Shown here: in pieces, positions 3-19,720 of the stretch
Numbering within the stretch: the stretch's first letter is position 1
Layout of the letters: the number at the start of each line of letters is the position of its first letter
From: an archaeon GW2011_AR10
Lineage (GTDB): Archaea > Iainarchaeota > Iainarchaeia > Iainarchaeales > GW2011-AR10
DNA length: 32,000 nucleotides
Assembly: GCA_000830275.1 (NCBI GenBank)
Contig: CP010424.1
Location: 540,001-572,000, forward strand
Direction of reading: 5' to 3'
Translations under genes and position numbers: made by a program
Notes under the pieces: generated by a model
What the model saw: only the letters and a program-made list of their open reading frames with translations
The model's database searches: none
Told to the model about the DNA's origin: nothing

Positions 3-1106
3 GAAGGTTTTGCCTACAACGTGGAAGGCAATGACTTAACCATTAGAGTTGTTTCGTTTAATGATTCGCGCTGCCCTGAAGGGGTTCAGTGCGTTTGGGC
101 TGGAGAGCTTGGAGTAACACTGACAGTCAGTTCCGGGACCAATGCTCCGGACACAATTGGTTACAAGGAATCGCAAATCATTTTAGGGGAGACAACAAAT
201 CCTAGTGTGATTGTATTTAATCGGTACAGCTTTGAGTTAATTTCCATTGATTTTGAAGCAAAGGAAGCGCAAATAAAAGTCACGGAATGGAACCAAAGAG
301 AGCCGAATGAAAAGGAATGGTTTTCAATTGAGCCAATTCAGTGCCAAGGGAACTTATGGGATGAATGGGATGCAAAAGAATTGAATAAGAGAAAATGGGA
401 GGGTGAGGAAGAGCTTATTACTGTCTGGCTTGAGATCGTGAACGGAGTAAGGGTTTACGATTACGCTTCAAAGCAGGTTTACGAGATTGTGTGCTTGGCC
501 TGCTCGTGCCCGCGCGGCGACAGGATAGCTGTATTGGTTAACAGCAGCAATTCAGCAAAAATGCTGGAGCTTGGCTGGGAAAAAATGGATAGCATCGCAT
601 GCACTGAGGAAGCAAAGCTCTGCCCTGATGGAAGCGCTGTTGGAAGGGAAGCGCCTTTCTGTGATTTTGCTCCCTGCCCTGGAGGAATTGAACCAGAGCA
701 ACCGCCTGAGGAAGAATTCTTCATCCAAAAAACAAATGTGCCTGGATTCACGATTGACCCATCTGTACTTACAACAACAATTTATTTGGACGGGCAGGTT
801 ATGATTGAGGAGGAACAAAGTTTTCCTGTCGGCGGCGATACACCTGTTTCAGTTGAATTGCGCCAAATCAGCACTGAAAGCGTTGCTGAACTAAAGCAAG
901 TGATAAATGGAACGAATTTCTTTGAATTAACGGAAGAAGATGCAAGGCAGTGCGTTGCTGATGCTCCCACAATTACGCTTGAAATAAACCTTGAGGAAAA
1001 CTCTAACTCTGTTTACGGCATTGGCTCTGAATGCGAGCAGGAAAAACTTGTAGCCGCATACGAAATTCTCAGCGCAATTGATGAATTGCAGTTTTTAACT
1101 GAGTGA
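3..1106 (+). CDS. Cysteine-rich secreted/hypothetical protein, probably 5'-partial
   Basis: ORF track 21..1106. The frame stays open back to nt 3 (EGFAYN precedes the GTG), so the N-terminus probably lies outside the window. Paired-Cys motifs are SRCPEGVQCVWAG and CPDGSAVGREAPFCDFAPCP. No family recognised. Confidence 0.6.
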   Translation, partial: EGFAYNVEGNDLTIRVVSFNDSRCPEGVQCVWAGELGVTLTVSSGTNAPDTIGYKESQIILGETTNPSVIVFNRYSFELISIDFEAKEAQIKVTEWNQREPNEKEWFSIEPIQCQGNLWDEWDAKELNKRKWEGEEELITVWLEIVNGVRVYDYASKQVYEIVCLACSCPRGDRIAVLVNSSNSAKMLELGWEKMDSIACTEEAKLCPDGSAVGREAPFCDFAPCPGGIEPEQPPEEEFFIQKTNVPGFTIDPSVLTTTIYLDGQVMIEEEQSFPVGGDTPVSVELRQISTESVAELKQVINGTNFFELTEEDARQCVADAPTITLEINLEENSNSVYGIGSECEQEKLVAAYEILSAIDELQFLTE

Positions 1107-1117
1107 TTCTTTAGAAG

Positions 1118-1213
1118 CTATAGCAGGCGACATTAATTTTTGAACATTTATTGTAGCCTGATAGATAGCAAATGACCTTATTTGTTCAACTATTTTTGTC
1201 ATTTGCTATAACT
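1118..1213. repeat. Two-hairpin copy (types IV + I) of the CTATAG-bounded hairpin family
   Basis: Hairpin 1a: CAGGCGACA 1124-1132 pairs with TGTAGCCTG 1152-1160 (one mismatch); the loop contains TTAATTTTTGAACATTTA. Hairpin 1b: ATAGCAAATGAC 1165-1176 pairs with GTCATTTGCTAT 1198-1209 (12 bp, perfect). The copy ends in TTGCTATAACT (1203-1213). Confidence 0.8.
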
Positions 1214-1229: not shown

Positions 1230-1625
1230 CTAGATGATTTCTTTTTTTATGTTCGTGAATCTTTGAAAATGTTTGTCTTTTGTGAGCACAGTGAGATCGT
1301 TTTCCCCAGCGGTTGCAGCTATTATGCAGTCTATCAGGCCAACTTGGCGACCGCTCTTTTTAATGCCCTTATTGGCTTCGAACCACATCTTGCCAGCTGT
1401 GAATTCACCTGCACGGGAACTATTGAGAATTCCACTGCAGGAGGTTTCCACTCTTGGAAGTATCTGCGCTGCAGCAAAGTTGTTTGAGTGGCACCATTTG
1501 CTCATCTCCACTATTGTTACTGCACATGCATAGCGGTCTTTGCCTGCAATTTTTTTCATTGCGTTTTTTCCGCTTTCCGTTTCCCGAAAAATATCTATCC
1601 ATACGGATGTGTCAACCAAGTACAT
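1230..1625 (-). CDS. vapC: PIN-domain toxin (VapC family)
   Basis: The ORF track extends to 1652, but the ATG at 1625 gives MYLVDTSVWIDIF, a typical PIN N-terminus with the conserved Asp. It lies 1 nt after the stop of the upstream AbrB-type ORF. The later LIDCIIAATA and VLTKD segments fit the PIN fold. Confidence 0.8.
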   Translation of the reverse strand: MYLVDTSVWIDIFRETESGKNAMKKIAGKDRYACAVTIVEMSKWCHSNNFAAAQILPRVETSCSGILNSSRAGEFTAGKMWFEANKGIKKSGRQVGLIDCIIAATAGENDLTVLTKDKHFQRFTNIKKEII

Positions 1626-1626
1626 T

Positions 1627-1842
1627 TCAGAAAACCCTGTCTTTTTCCTCACGCTTAAATGGCTTTGCTCCCTTGGCTATGCCGAATAGTTCTGATAGAG
1701 CCCTTTCATTGTCCTGCCTTATGACGCTTATTTTCAATGTTTGGTTGAATTTCAGTTTGTTTTCTTTCAAATCCTTCTTTTTGATGGCAATTGCTGCAGA
1801 ATTGCCAAGCCTTACCACTTTGCCTTCAATCATATCAATCAC
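1627..1842 (-). CDS. vapB: AbrB/SpoVT-type antitoxin (VapB-like)
   Basis: 71 aa. GKVVRLGNSAAIAIKKKDL resembles the swapped-hairpin AbrB/SpoVT DNA-binding motif. It sits immediately upstream of the PIN gene on the same strand. Confidence 0.7.
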   Translation of the reverse strand: MIDMIEGKVVRLGNSAAIAIKKKDLKENKLKFNQTLKISVIRQDNERALSELFGIAKGAKPFKREEKDRVF

Positions 1843-2704: not shown

Positions 2705-3076
2705 TTATTTAACGAATTCCACGTTTGGCATGCCTTCAAATGCTTTATCCCCTGTAACAAACATTAATCTGTTTTCTTTTGCCAGCACATAACCTATAGA
2801 GTCAATGTAGGAAAACTTTTTCCTGGAATTTTCTTTTCTAAAAATCGCTATTTTTGAAACTTGGCCTTCCTGTATTTCGAGTGCAGTGAACTTCGTAGAA
2901 TCAAGTATTTTTAATGCATTTTCCTTTGAAAATGATTTAAACAAGTGATAGGCGACTTCCACAAGGTTAATTCTGGTTGAAAAAGGAATTGCACCTGAAA
3001 ACTTATCATAGTTCGGGTTGCCCCTGAGAATCTCGATTATTGCATAAGAGTCAAGAAAATAGCTTTTCTCTTTCAT
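2705..3076 (-). CDS. vapC: PIN-domain toxin (VapC family)
   Basis: SYFLDSYAIIEIL (N-terminal Asp) and FVTGDKAF near the C-terminus are typical PIN features. 123 aa. It lies directly downstream of, and overlaps, an AbrB-type ORF. Confidence 0.75.
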   Translation of the reverse strand: MKEKSYFLDSYAIIEILRGNPNYDKFSGAIPFSTRINLVEVAYHLFKSFSKENALKILDSTKFTALEIQEGQVSKIAIFRKENSRKKFSYIDSIGYVLAKENRLMFVTGDKAFEGMPNVEFVK

Positions 3077-7474: not shown

Positions 7475-7540
7475 GTAACCCGCCAATCCAAAAATAGAAA
7501 AGCCCAATCAAAGCATTTAGCTTGCGCAACCACTAAGAGT

Positions 7541-7627
7541 TATAGCAAAATGCTTATGTGTTTGAATTAAAATCGCATTTTGCAACCAGCAAATTAAATG
7601 TTCAAAAATTAAAGCTGTTTGCTATAG
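7541..7627. repeat. Two-hairpin copy (types II + III, inverted orientation) of the CTATAG-bounded hairpin family
   Basis: Hairpin 3a: GCAAAATGC 7545-7553 pairs with GCATTTTGC 7575-7583 (perfect). Hairpin 3b: GCAACCAGC 7582-7590 pairs with GCTGTTTGC 7614-7622 (one mismatch). The 3b loop is the reverse complement of the TTAATTTTTGAACATTTA motif. A T8 run follows at 7637-7644. Confidence 0.8.
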
Positions 7628-7693
7628 TTCCCAAACTTTTTTTTGCACCCCGTTTTCGGCTTATGGAAATCAGGTGCTTTGGCTTTAAGGCAT

Positions 7694-13759: not shown

Positions 13760-14476
13760 TCAGTTTCCTTTTGAGAAAAGTGTTTCAAGCCTTACGCGCA
13801 GCAGGTCGCGGGCGGTTTTCTTGATGCGGTTAAAGCCAAAGCACTGGCTGCTGCCGAATTCCCGTTCAAGGTGCTTCACCGGCACCTCCGCAATTTTGAA
13901 GCCGGCTTTCTTAGCCTTGTAAACCAATTCCGCACTGAAAAAACCGCTTTTTGAAGTAAGGGTTATTTTGTCGAAAATTTTCCTGCGCGCAAGCTTGTAG
14001 CTGCAATCAAGGTCCTTAACCGCAAAACCGAATGAAAGAAAAATGAGGAGCTTGTAGATTTTCTGGAAAAATTTTCTCTGGAAGCCTTCAACCCTGTTGG
14101 TTCTGTAGCCTATCACCAAATCTGCATCCTGCATTGCTTCCATAAATTTTGGCAGGTCTTCAACACTGTACTGCGCGTCACCATCAGTAAACCCAACGAA
14201 CTCTTTTTTGCCTGAAAGGAAACCGGTTGTTAGAGCCCCACCGTAATCCATGTTTTTTTCGTGGTGGATTACGCGCATTCTGCCGAGTTTTTTCGCAAGC
14301 TTTTCTGCGACCTCGCCTGACTTATCAGGGGAGGCATCATTTACAACAATCAGCTCGAAGTCGCGGCCGCTTTTTTTCAGAAAACTGTGAAATTTTGGGA
14401 CAATTTTTGGAAGCGACTTCTCATCATGGTAAGCCGGAAAGAAAAAAGAAACGCTTTCCATGCCTTCTGCAGCCAT
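13760..14476 (-). CDS. GT2, polyprenyl-phosphate glycosyltransferase type (GtrB/ArnC-like), paralog of 29378..30082
   Basis: SVSFFFPAYHDEKSLP...LIVVNDASPDKS and FTDGDAQY (DxD) are the GT2 motifs. The C-terminal PVKHLEREFGSSQ resembles the ArnC/GtrB HxxREFGxSK motif. Confidence 0.85.
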   Translation of the reverse strand: MAAEGMESVSFFFPAYHDEKSLPKIVPKFHSFLKKSGRDFELIVVNDASPDKSGEVAEKLAKKLGRMRVIHHEKNMDYGGALTTGFLSGKKEFVGFTDGDAQYSVEDLPKFMEAMQDADLVIGYRTNRVEGFQRKFFQKIYKLLIFLSFGFAVKDLDCSYKLARRKIFDKITLTSKSGFFSAELVYKAKKAGFKIAEVPVKHLEREFGSSQCFGFNRIKKTARDLLRVRLETLFSKGN

Positions 14477-14497
14477 ACCCTAATTTTTTCTCAATCC

Positions 14498-14517
14498 TAT
14501 TAAAAAATGTGATATCA
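14498..14517 (-). promoter_or_regulatory. TATA-like box (TTTTTTAATA on the minus strand) plus adjacent 8-bp palindrome TGATATCA
   Basis: The TATA-like centre is about 26 nt upstream of the 14476 ATG, a leaderless geometry. The palindrome at 14510-14517 lies just upstream of it and could be a regulator site. Confidence 0.4.
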
Positions 14518-14518
14518 T

Positions 14519-14536
14519 CCACACCCAAAGGTGTGG
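14519..14536. other. GC-rich hairpin alpha: CCACACC-caaa-GGTGTGG
   Basis: A 7-bp perfect stem with a 4-nt loop, read directly from the sequence. Confidence 0.7.
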
Positions 14537-14583
14537 GCTTCCTGCCACATGGAAAAGTCAAAAGGTAATTGAAGAGACTTTAT

Positions 14584-14607
14584 CCAACATCTGAAGATGT
14601 TGGTTTT
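14584..14607 (+). other. Hairpin beta: CCAACATC-tgaa-GATGTTGG followed by TTTT
   Basis: An 8-bp perfect stem with a 4-nt loop, then T4. Its 5' flank (ATCCA) and shape resemble hairpin alpha 65 nt upstream. Confidence 0.7.
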
Positions 14608-14663
14608 CGCCAGCCTCTTCCTAAAAGGCTGATGGAGTTTTTCGAAAGCACCCAAAGCAGAAT

Positions 14664-14848
14664 TATAGCAAAAGACATTAGTTTCGGTAATTTCTTAATG
14701 TCTTTTGCGACTATAGCAAACAGCCAATATTTTTGAACTTTTTATTGCTGTTTGCTAGATGCAAAACGCAGTTTCAATGTTCAATTACTTAAGCGTTTTG
14801 CTATAGCGAATGACTTGTTTTCTACCATTATTAAAGTCATTCGCTATT
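14664..14848. repeat. Array of four abutting different hairpins (types IV-III-II-I) joined by CTATAG
   Basis: A: 14668-14680 pairs with 14696-14708 (13 bp). B: 14714-14724 pairs with 14747-14757 (11 bp). C: 14761-14769 pairs with 14793-14801 (9 bp). D: 14803-14815 pairs with 14835-14847 (13 bp). All four stems are perfect. Junction hexamers are CTATAG at 14711-14716 and 14801-14806, and CTAGAT at 14755-14760. Confidence 0.85.
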
Positions 14849-14921
14849 AATAAAAACAATTGGAGACTAAAAGGGTTACAGGGCTTAACATAATCTTGCA
14901 AAAAAATGTCAGGCAAAAAGC

Positions 14922-15854
14922 ATGAAAAAAATGAAGCCATTTGTTTCAGTAGTAGTTGTAGGATTCAACGGCGAAAAGTTCATTGCAAAGCTGCTTGAAT
15001 CACTTGAAAGCCAGTCATACCCTAGAAACAGGTTCGAAGTAATTCTTGTGGACAACGCTTCAACAGACAATACTTCAAAAATTGCTGAGAGTTTCCAGAA
15101 GGCGGAAATAATTCAATTAAAAGAGAACACGGGTTTTGCCGCTGGAAACAATGAGGGAATAAAAAAAAGCAAAGGAGAATTTGTTGTTCTTGTCAGCCAG
15201 GACGTGTGGGTGGAAAAAAACTTTTTATCTGAACTGGTGAAAACAATGCAGGAAAAACCAGAAGCAGGAATTGTGGGAGCAGCAGAGCACCCATACGATG
15301 GAACAATTCCCAAGGCAAAAAAAATTGTTGAAAGCAGCTGGATGGGCGGCGGGGCAATGATGATAAGACGAAAAGCTCTCGAAGAAGAGCTCTTTGACGA
15401 AAACTATTTTGCGTACTGCGAGGACATGGACCTTTCCTGGAGAATGAAAATGAAGGGCTGGAGGATTTTTCTCAATACGGCTTCTATATGGCACCATGCA
15501 GGCTTTGACAGAAGCGACATAAGCAGTTGGGCTGCCGCAATTGCAATCAGAAACCGGGTTCTCTTATTGCTGACATACGGAAGCATGGGGCAAATTATAA
15601 AGTCGATTAATTTTATGGGAACTGCAAATTCGAATTCAAGCAGGGAAAAAAACAACTCTCATAAAAATAGAGGCTCCAGCTCAAGAGAAAAAAAGAAAGT
15701 TTCTTCACTCAGCCTATTTTTCTCTGTCCTGCCCTTATTGCCTTCAACCATTGCAAAAAGGTTTTCAGTTATGCAGAACAAAAAAGTTTCGCAGCAGGAA
15801 ATCGACTCGTGGATTCGGGAAACAGACAAGCAGCTGTGGGGGAAGGAAAGTTGA
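14922..15854 (+). CDS. GT2 glycosyltransferase with a low-complexity Ser/Lys/Asn-rich C-terminal region
   Basis: FVSVVVVGFNGEKFIAKLLESL...VILVDNASTDNT and NTGFAAGNNEG are the GT2 motifs. The C-terminal third contains NSNSSREKNNSHKNRGSSSREKKK. Confidence 0.85.
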   Translation: MKKMKPFVSVVVVGFNGEKFIAKLLESLESQSYPRNRFEVILVDNASTDNTSKIAESFQKAEIIQLKENTGFAAGNNEGIKKSKGEFVVLVSQDVWVEKNFLSELVKTMQEKPEAGIVGAAEHPYDGTIPKAKKIVESSWMGGGAMMIRRKALEEELFDENYFAYCEDMDLSWRMKMKGWRIFLNTASIWHHAGFDRSDISSWAAAIAIRNRVLLLLTYGSMGQIIKSINFMGTANSNSSREKNNSHKNRGSSSREKKKVSSLSLFFSVLPLLPSTIAKRFSVMQNKKVSQQEIDSWIRETDKQLWGKES

Positions 15855-19608: not shown

Positions 19609-19711
19609 TATAGTAAAAGAGTAAAAGACATTAATTTTTGAACATTTTATGGTCTTTTACTATCTATCAAGGACGATATTTGTCCAATTATTAATGCCCC
19701 TTGCTATAACT
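19609..19711. repeat. Two-hairpin copy (type IV + degenerate type I) of the CTATAG-bounded hairpin family
   Basis: Hairpin 5a: AGTAAAAGAC 19620-19629 pairs with GTCTTTTACT 19652-19661 (perfect). Its segment GACATTAATTTTTGAACATTT (stem end plus loop) is identical over 21 nt to 1129-1149. Hairpin 5b is weak: CAAGG 19668-19672 pairs with CCTTG 19699-19703. The copy ends in TTGCTATAACT (19701-19711). Confidence 0.75.
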
Positions 19712-19720
19712 AAAAGTTAT

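Follow-up and report, generated by a model that had tools for sequence, protein, structure and literature searches.

What are four perfect hairpins, packed end to end between two divergent glycosyltransferase genes of an archaeon, and do they serve these genes? The question is posed by a stretch of 32,000 nucleotides of archaeon GW2011_AR10 (contig CP010424.1, positions 540,001 to 572,000), referred to throughout as the window. The spacer in question, at 14477-14921, is the 445-bp divergent intergenic region originally described; it separates the GT2 genes 13760-14476 (minus strand) and 14922-15854 (plus strand) within a large polysaccharide-biosynthesis cluster, and contains at 14663-14850 the four consecutive hairpins, A to D. 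An original prediction, made from the letters alone, regarded this block as a master array, of which the other hairpin loci of the window would be sub-assemblies. Judged from its sequence, the array is a Y element (14711-14806) inserted in the exact centre of an older, degenerate X element (14663-14710 plus 14807-14850), X and Y being two types of a dispersed double-hairpin repeat. It was not made as a regulatory structure for the glycosyltransferase genes on either side.

The four-hairpin observation is confirmed as real and non-random. The stems are perfect and the loops measure 15-23 nt as predicted, with the correction that stem D has 14 bp rather than 13. The hairpins had also been said to abut through a shared CTATAG; of the three junctions, those at 14711-14716 and 14801-14806 have this hexamer, TTATAG stands at the left end (14663), and the gaps between successive stems are 5, 3 and 1 nt. 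Folded as plus-strand DNA, a 193-nt stretch is predicted to form exactly hairpins A to D, at -45.3 kcal/mol against -15.7 +/- 2.7 in shuffles (z = -10.9), and as minus-strand RNA the same stretch gives z = -8.2; none of 200 dinucleotide shuffles folds as stably. The folding of both strands, proposed as a check, thus returned four hairpins far more stable than shuffled sequence. In addition, CTATAGCAAA with at most one mismatch occurs ten times in the window, where 3.1 +/- 1.5 occurrences are expected and none of 100 shuffles reaches ten.

The building block of the array is a hairpin unit of 47-50 nt with a head, TATAGCAAA, a variable inner stem and a conserved loop, TTTGAAC, its consensus being nnTATAGCAAA-nnGC-(loop ...TTTTTGAAC...)-GCnn-TTTGCTATA. 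The window holds ten such units in four loci. Oriented by the loop ...TTTTTGAAC..., all of them start with yTATAGCAAA, while their ends are less regular (...TTTGCTA(t/g)at), and this constant head with an irregular tail makes the unit directional. A covariance model built from the ten units recovered the same ten, with E values from 3e-10 to 1e-4, and nothing else credible in the window; it bears out the three loci related to the array (1118-1213, 7540-7628, 19609-19712). The four hairpin types are real as well. At every locus of the window the units converge with their heads outward, in the array in the order + + - -. A convergent pair forms an element of 93-98 bp with the termini TATAGCAAA...TTTGCTATA, in which the tails meet at ...TTTGCTATATGCAAA..., and the window comprises three X-type elements (types IV and I) and two Y-type elements (types III and II), so that the host has at least two sub-families.

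The array decomposes exactly into a Y pair nested in an X pair. More than 35 foreign Y copies align by BLAST with 14710/12 to 14805/06 and with nothing beyond, at 77-86% identity. The outer two hairpins have the stems that are also found in the X elements 1118-1213 and 19609-19712: the stem of the left outer unit, U5, is that of the type IV units at 1118-1164 and 19609-19664, and the stem of the right outer unit, U8 (ATAGCGAATGAC), matches that of U2 (ATAGCAAATGAC). The loop of U5 (GTTTCGGTAATTTCT) is without the TTGAAC motif and that of U8 is degenerate, without GTTCAA. Their covariance model scores are the lowest (41.8 bits, E = 1e-6, for U5; 32.3 and 29.5 bits for U8), and because of these scores and the altered loops the outer X is taken to be the older copy. 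No other locus with three or four adjacent units is among the approximately 130 loci listed, which combine genome and metagenome loci; the array is thus a rare nested event and not a master copy. The relation first proposed is therefore reversed: the two-hairpin pair is what recurs (at least 78 pairs across those loci), whereas the four-hairpin order is seen at one locus. That the array is a nested pair of dispersed repeat elements can be held with high confidence, and among the options offered at the outset a recombination or insertion hotspot came closest.

The family extends well beyond this genome. When 185,579 species genomes were scanned for TATAGCA-N12-TTTTGAACWTTT, 99 stretches were fetched (loci from the comparison are cited here by L numbers), in which the covariance model identified 109 units, all of them in metagenome-assembled genomes (MAGs) labelled as DPANN archaea. 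The carriers are labelled Ca. Iainarchaeum (several), Micrarchaeota/Bilamarchaeaceae, Woesearchaeota, Pacearchaeota, Altiarchaeota and "uncultured archaeon", while the single scan matches in bacteria contain no unit according to the model and are chance matches. Nearly all units have an adjacent convergent partner, giving the arrangement TATAGCAAAnnGC-loop-GCnnTTTGCTATATGCAAAnnGC-loop-GCnnTTTGCTATA over 93-98 bp. A metagenome scan added at least 25 further pairs to reach the total above, which is a lower bound, many of them in Hainich groundwater contigs that end inside the element. Across these pairs the linker measures 0-5 nt and TATAGCAAA...TTTGCTATA stands at the ends of essentially all. 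Copies of X were found elsewhere at L047, L087, L129, L163 and L208, most other copies being Y. The element is 77-96% identical across genomes whose surrounding DNA does not align; the X at 1118-1211, for instance, shares 95.7% identity with the X at L047, a locus with unrelated flanks in another Ca. Iainarchaeum MAG, the rest of the window giving no further BLAST match to the loci fetched from that MAG, and the X at 19609-19712 is 89.6% identical to that in L087. No description of the motif or the family was found in the literature, and no Rfam family matches the window at the gathering threshold, the best sub-threshold hit within 14450-14950 reaching 22.6 bits against 40. A virus as vector was considered and rejected, as a scan of IMG/VR yielded two chance matches and no real copy.

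The stems change in a way that points to a constrained structure. In an alignment of 107 distinct units, which was fitted to the model and so leans to structure by a bias far smaller than the effect, 93.9% of stem cells are paired as opposed to 75.9% in shuffles, and 10 of the 12 stem pairs show changes on both sides (228 cells versus 75 in shuffles). None of 500 shuffles reaches the covariation score, and slid registers pair in 33-51% of cells only. The window units alone give the same picture, with 84.7% of cells paired, eight of twelve pairs changed on both sides and again none of 500 shuffles reaching the score. Conservation is found in the head TATAGCAAA, in the G-C pairs that close the inner stem and in the loop TTTGAAC; the inner stems vary by genome and are always compensated (ACTGC/GCAGT, ACCGT/ACGGT, AAAGC/GCTTT, AGAGC/GCTCT, ATGAC/GTCAT, GGCGAC/GTCGCC).

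The pair has spread as a whole to unrelated loci. Different copies have unrelated flanks. A single population has 26 distinct Y copies, dispersed over different loci and 88-100% identical, and some copies from separate loci agree at 100%. Two related species, whose genes are 66-76% identical in DNA, each carry an element at a syntenic intergenic site that has none in the other, and their non-orthologous copies are about 90% identical by eye. Long forms of the pair measure 147-148 bp. L100, L164 and L167, three loci unrelated to one another, share a long form in which an identical insertion of ca. 53 nt occupies one and the same internal site, so the whole pair spread after acquiring the insertion. 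Truncated and solo units are rare.

The elements are intergenic, with only short, spurious open reading frames (ORFs) overlapping the pairs, and their neighbours are housekeeping genes such as those for the large subunit DP2 of DNA polymerase D, enolase, ribosomal protein L3 and DapB. Among the 32 gene-pair settings that were fully scored, 14 are convergent, 12 tandem and 6 divergent, and the flanking sides face a gene 3' end in mild excess (51, versus 31 facing a 5' end). Relative to the genes beside it, the asymmetric pair is oriented at random, which argues against a strand-specific RNA role, rejected on this ground, and for an element acting at the DNA level that is tolerated mostly where harmless. 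In AR10 the density is approximately one copy per 6-10 kb over 48 kb sampled, with five elements in the 32-kb window. For DPANN archaea, with their tiny genomes and presumed dependence on hosts, a repeat of such density is notable.

The sequence flanking the elements shows a pattern as well. In 122 pooled, non-redundant ends, the right flanks being reverse-complemented, A occupies position -3 in 70 (p = 3e-11) and is also favoured at -4, positions -6 to -8 are T-rich and G is depleted at -1 (8/122, p = 3.5e-6). Left unpooled, the flanks of 48 left and 44 right ends are mirror images, and this same outward pattern at both ends defines a palindromic target, ...AAnH|TA|DnTT.... TA flanks the element on both sides, compatible with a 2-bp duplication or with part of the inverted repeat. 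Where Y abuts another repeat, Z, the TA beside TAGCAAA completes the end of Z itself (...CCAATA|TA), faintly suggesting that the TA next to Z is target-derived; the junction also hints at a preference for inserting at the feet of other hairpins, which would match the nesting in the window. If TA is duplicated, the element itself would be TAGCAAA...TTTGCTA, and the site of nesting in X would read C-TA-G. An AT-rich palindromic target around TA is the pattern of TA-duplicating Tc1/mariner/IS630 elements, and C-TA-G is the target preferred by IS630.

A mechanism may be proposed on this basis. The pair would move as one unit, mobilised in trans, and the TA-centred flanks together with the TA|TAG...CTA|TA ends suggest TA-targeted cut-and-paste insertion of the IS630/Tc1-mariner type. 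Y would have inserted at or next to the TA at the foot of two X hairpins, and a bias to the feet of hairpin repeats would yield both nesting and clustering. The compensated stems and conserved loops suggest that the machinery propagating or retaining the element reads the folded form, either hairpin or cruciform, while any effect on the flanking glycosyltransferase genes, as terminator, insulator or through stray TATA-like sequences, would be secondary. It is from these features that we infer the TA duplication, the type of enzyme and the need for the folded form. A TA-targeted DDE mechanism is a tentative choice that falls somewhat short of an even chance, and a HUH or single-strand mechanism is a less likely one.

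In its termini and target the element is closest to the TA-duplicating MITEs (miniature inverted-repeat transposable elements) of IS630/Tc1-mariner type, and to the Correia elements. Examples of such MITEs are Sulfolobus SM1 (related to ISC1048), pneumococcal RUP and Escherichia coli MITEEc1. Shared with these are a size of ca. 80-130 bp, terminal inverted repeats flanked by TA, an AT-rich palindromic TA target, intergenic location, multiple copies and nesting. The features common to MITEs generally, namely a small non-coding size, terminal inverted repeats and many copies at unrelated loci, are all present. Unlike IS630-type MITEs, which do not need it, each half forms a covarying hairpin of its own, its loop being conserved, and no IS630-type transposase with matching ends was found in the sampled DNA. 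The Correia elements of Neisseria (CREE/NEMIS) are ca. 100-150 bp long, have TATAG... termini and a TA duplication, fold into hairpins when transcribed and can alter the expression of neighbouring genes; each is a single long inverted repeat, and they are bacterial and found in one genus. We know of no cognate transposase for them. The present element likewise starts with TATAG, but is otherwise unrelated in sequence and made of two separate hairpins. In an automated census of 2024 that also mentions MITEEc1_IS630, the density of MITEs among archaea is highest in DPANN, with 146/Mb in Ca. Altiarchaeum hamiconexum and 105/Mb in a Woesearchaeon, in agreement with the abundance of the double-hairpin family (PMC11602168). 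The census describes no individual MITE family. The double-hairpin family is apparently undescribed; it appears to be a new archaeal member of the MITE/REP-like class (REP, repetitive extragenic palindrome), widespread in DPANN archaea. Nested copies of a non-autonomous, MITE- or REP-like double-hairpin element of about 95 bp probably offer the best explanation of the whole.

Several points weigh against this explanation. An empty allele was not found for any copy: a metagenome scan for an X site free of Y, under any duplication model (gap 0-10), gave no matches, and the joined flanks of all 78 pairs had no spanning match in all fetched DNA bar an assembly gap. No transposase was found near, between or recurrent at the elements, the search covering ca. 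94 loci of archaea (0.52 Mb) and the window +/- 8 kb. Pfam returned no transposase family in two or more loci among 121 ORFs within 1.2 kb of elements, the ORFs between neighbouring elements are ordinary genes, and the remaining ORFs of the window include no transposase; when 373 and later 621 ORFs were clustered all against all, the only recurrent frames were spurious ones across the elements. The arrangement that would mark an autonomous parent, unit...1-3 kb...unit, is absent from the sampled loci, and no stray TATAGCAAA termini framing 0.5-3 kb were found. The MAGs are cited under the taxonomic labels of their deposition, which may be unreliable. Lastly, a double-strand DDE transposase does not need hairpins and gives no reason for strong stem covariation. 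This covariation, together with the perfect stems of the loop-decayed outer X, fits single-strand or cruciform recognition, or host selection, better.

Single-strand recognition is at the centre of the best-surviving alternative, in which a single-copy HUH tyrosine enzyme, either a REP-associated tyrosine transposase (RAYT) or one resembling the TnpA of IS200/IS605, recognises the units in folded form on single-stranded DNA, and the inverted doublet is copied without target duplication, as are the REP doublets (REPINs) of bacteria. REPINs and bacterial interspersed mosaic elements (BIMEs) are the known systems closest in form, being inverted palindromic doublets with a short linker and ca. 100 bp in total, the same architecture as the present pairs of ca. 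95 bp. Like them, the family is extragenic, non-coding and of many copies, clusters and nests with other palindromic repeats and has lineage-specific variants with compensatory stem changes, its very strong stem covariation being coupled to a conserved loop and foot. The want of an autonomous parent insertion sequence (IS) nearby, throughout the approximately 130 loci, is also what a single-copy enzyme gene would predict, and the palindromic stems make both hairpins alike on one strand, in the manner of the left and right ends of IS200/IS605. The latter is reported to be the most abundant and most widespread IS family in archaeal genomes, including Micrarchaeota (PMC13343696). Against this stand the symmetric palindromic flanks around TA, which suggest a two-fold symmetric attack on duplex DNA, and the absence of any Y1 transposase or RAYT near any unit in the sampled DNA. 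Moreover, the units are longer than REPs (47-50 bp rather than 20-40 bp) and have large conserved loops of 15-23 nt where those of REPs are small, and the head is TATAGCAAA, not GTAG or CGTC; by unit size, loop size and head they fall outside the definition of a REP, while the pair does form a doublet of REPIN kind. The host is an archaeon, and RAYTs are not known to have been described outside bacteria. Copying of the REPIN kind is thus unlikely, though the strongest of the alternatives. Slightly less likely again is a full archaeal counterpart of the REPIN-RAYT system, in which double-hairpin replicators would be read in folded form (TTGAAC loop, TATAGCAAA foot) by a single-copy candidate enzyme; their upkeep in several DPANN lineages, where the stems would co-evolve within each lineage, is doubtful to the same degree. 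Should it hold, it would be the first such system in Archaea as far as we know, and the enzyme may be of a new type. Finding the mobiliser would bear on how mobile DNA persists in reduced archaeal genomes, and on whether long-term "resident" replicators of REPIN kind exist outside Bacteria.

The second alternative is a function for the host, which would keep or even spread the motif for its use as a bidirectional terminator or insulator, a stabiliser of mRNA 3' ends or a site for a chromatin protein or another DNA-binding protein that reads the TTGAAC loop and the TATAGCAAA foot. The excess of gene 3' ends facing the element, the prevalence of convergent settings, the stems that have stayed perfect even in the old outer X with its decayed loops, and the conservation of head and loop across MAGs labelled as different phyla would all be accounted for. 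Presence and absence differ between related species at syntenic sites, however, and some unrelated loci carry identical copies; selfish spread is also what nesting, internal insertions and copies cut short indicate. In addition, the element occurs in divergent promoter regions such as that of the array, where a terminator makes little sense, and archaeal termination uses oligo-T tracts, not hairpins. A host function is accordingly improbable, more so than copying of the REPIN kind.

A dedicated multi-hairpin non-coding RNA (ncRNA) gene, or a structured 5' leader of the GT2-GT4 operon starting at 14922, had been put forward on the original view of the locus, and the very stable fold on either strand and the position upstream of both divergent genes speak for it. 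Some 130 unrelated loci, however, hold the same elements; these face either way, lie between convergent, tandem or divergent gene pairs and adjoin unrelated housekeeping genes, and no Rfam family matches them. The four-hairpin combination is confined to one locus, and the comparison of orthologous intergenic regions that had been suggested found no homolog of the GT2 protein above 53% identity outside its own population, so no close ortholog offers itself to show conservation. TATA-like promoters lie close to each start codon and outside the array, as originally noted. An RNA gene or leader is very improbable, and with it a false lead, the four-hairpin block as a riboregulator or ncRNA of the glycosyltransferase operon, is removed.

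Other classes of repeat fare no better. That the array is not a CRISPR was correctly seen, there being no constant direct repeat; the only direct repeats are the heads of 9-10 nt, and the units are palindromic in alternating orientation. It is also not a tRNA, a tRNA/tmRNA search giving no match. Integron attC sites, each a single imperfect palindrome with outer R''/R' (RYYYAAC/GTTRRRY), one per cassette and all in the same orientation, were rejected because GTTCAA/TTGAAC lies here in the loop and not at stem ends, the pairs are convergent in either orientation and there are no cassette arrays.

A fault of assembly, for example reads collapsing or forming a chimera at palindromes, was among the refutations originally anticipated and can be practically dismissed: the interior of the array is the terminus of three other contigs (L008-L010) and holds an NN gap in one MAG (L004), the usual behaviour of a multi-copy repeat, yet seven independent assemblies (ENA, JGI, NCBI), from different samples and assemblers, read through it base for base alike bar a few loop single-nucleotide polymorphisms (SNPs), and the window belongs to a contig of AR10 of 1,241,428 bp.

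Coordinates of the hairpins, units and elements, and of the further features discussed below, are collected in Table 1.

Table 1. Features of the array, its related elements and their surroundings; positions refer to the window unless a locus is given.
Feature	Position	Strand	Details
Hairpin A	arms 14668-14680 / 14696-14708		stem 13 bp, loop 15 nt
Hairpin B	arms 14714-14724 / 14747-14757		stem 11 bp, loop 22 nt
Hairpin C	arms 14761-14769 / 14793-14801		stem 9 bp, loop 23 nt
Hairpin D	arms 14803-14816 / 14834-14847		stem 14 bp, loop 17 nt
U5, left half of outer X, type IV	14663-14710	+	hairpin 14668-14708, head TTATAGCAAA at 14663-14672
U6, left unit of inner Y, type III	14711-14760	+	head CTATAGCAAA, stem TAGCAAACAGC/GCTGTTTGCTA, loop contains TTTTTGAAC; 55 bits
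U7, right unit of inner Y, type II	14757-14806	-	stem GCAAAACGC/GCGTTTTGC, loop contains GTTCAA, head CTATAG at 14801-14806; 50.6 bits
U8, right half of outer X, type I	14801-14850	-	hairpin 14803-14847, 14-bp stem, terminus GCTATTAA
Intact X: U1 type IV(+), U2 type I(-)	1118-1213	+	units 1118-1164(+)/1163-1213(-); between convergent genes 21-1106(+) and 1230-1652(-)
Y: U3 type II(+), U4 type III(-)	7540-7628	-	units 7540-7585(+)/7584-7628(-); orientation opposite to array Y
X: U9 type IV(+), U10 type I(-)	19609-19712	+	units 19609-19664(+)/19662-19712(-); between two minus-strand genes
Hairpin CCACACC..GGTGTGG	14519-14536		in 14512-14660
Hairpin CCAACATCT-ga-AGATGTTGG, then TTTT	14584-14603, T-run to 14607	+	in 14512-14660
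Hairpin CAGCCT..AGGCTG	within 14512-14660
PIN-domain observation	1230-1652(-), 2705-3076(-); L214:11090-11329
Insertion of ca. 53 nt, two mini-hairpins	L100:7303-7450, L164:1799-1941, L167:415-560		same arm position
Z, ca. 47 bp	see Z and W loci		GTCCCGTC..GACGGGAC hairpin
W, ca. 85 bp	see Z and W loci		ends TATAGATTGCAATACCAAATTGGCAA
Z and W loci, listed jointly	L030:1618-1674, L042:2060-2106, L036:3956-4012, L133:2767-2813, L050:2568-2614, L212:804-851; L196:127-200, L194:1861-1946, L075:634-709

Of the approximately 380 bp of spacer that had been described as unexplained by promoter needs, 188 bp are now accounted for by the nested repeat, while some 150 bp (14512-14660) lie outside it. The host is a DPANN archaeon from groundwater (Ca. 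Iainarchaeum) with a TATA-binding protein encoded on a neighbouring contig; the window's proteins match those of archaeon GW2011_AR10 / Ca. Iainarchaeum sp. exactly. On the minus strand a promoter-like TTTTTTAATA at 14498-14507 is centred ca. 26 nt from the start at 14476. The region 14512-14660 has no match in any other DNA fetched for comparison and no match in Rfam; it is moderately structured (RNA z of -2.8 and -3.0), with three hairpins listed in Table 1, and may represent a small RNA or what is left of another insertion. Two copies of a 9-bp direct repeat, CACCCAAAG, bracket it (14522-14530 and 14649-14657).

Two of the related elements show peculiarities of their own. The X at 19609-19712 has in its left arm (19609-19630) a short internal tandem duplication, TATAGTAAAAGAGTAAAAGAC, and its stem starts 11 nt in. 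The Y at 7540-7628 corresponds to L004:2749-2839 (GCA_013332025.1, contig DUFG01000021), relative to which the tail arm of U4 has a 7-bp deletion (CTAGCAAA region), and synteny between the two breaks inside the element: identity extends over the right half and the flank beyond it, SNPs occur in the left half and the left flank is unrelated (genes for TATA-binding protein, PD-(D/E)XK nuclease and others). Judging from coordinates, another contig of the same MAG, DUFG01000001, ends at or near the 7540-7628 element in the arrangement of the window. The break could reflect recombination between copies or a chimeric assembly join.

Contigs that start (L008-L010) or end (L117, L120, L125, L128, L133, L143, L177) inside an element show the family to be a frequent cause of assembly breaks in DPANN MAGs. 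As they break assemblies and can create chimeric joins in MAGs, the elements should be masked as repeats in DPANN annotation. Just past the window end, a length difference of 196 bp between strains (L218 versus L219; L219:7730-7830) was rejected as an element polymorphism, being a scaffolding gap with a run of N and duplicated flanks.

Smaller repeats accompany the family. The mini-hairpins of the ca. 53-nt insertion, e.g., GCAAAGCC..GCTTTGC and GCAAAAGC..GCTTTTGC, recur in the other unit of the pair at L017:6986-7069, L080 and L097:1446-1592, and the insertion looks like a still smaller nested repeat family. In the CAYIER01/Hainich population the palindromic repeat families Z and W abut Y at TATA junctions, and intergenic regions there are mosaics of hairpin repeats.

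Within the polysaccharide cluster, two PIN-domain (VapC-like) genes adjoin repeat copies, with a MazE/AbrB-type antitoxin gene beside one of them. About 5 kb upstream of the window start lies a UDP-glucose/GDP-mannose dehydrogenase gene (L214:3099-5774, 891 aa), for which precomputed Pfam annotation gives an intein splicing domain and, faintly, a LAGLIDADG endonuclease domain.

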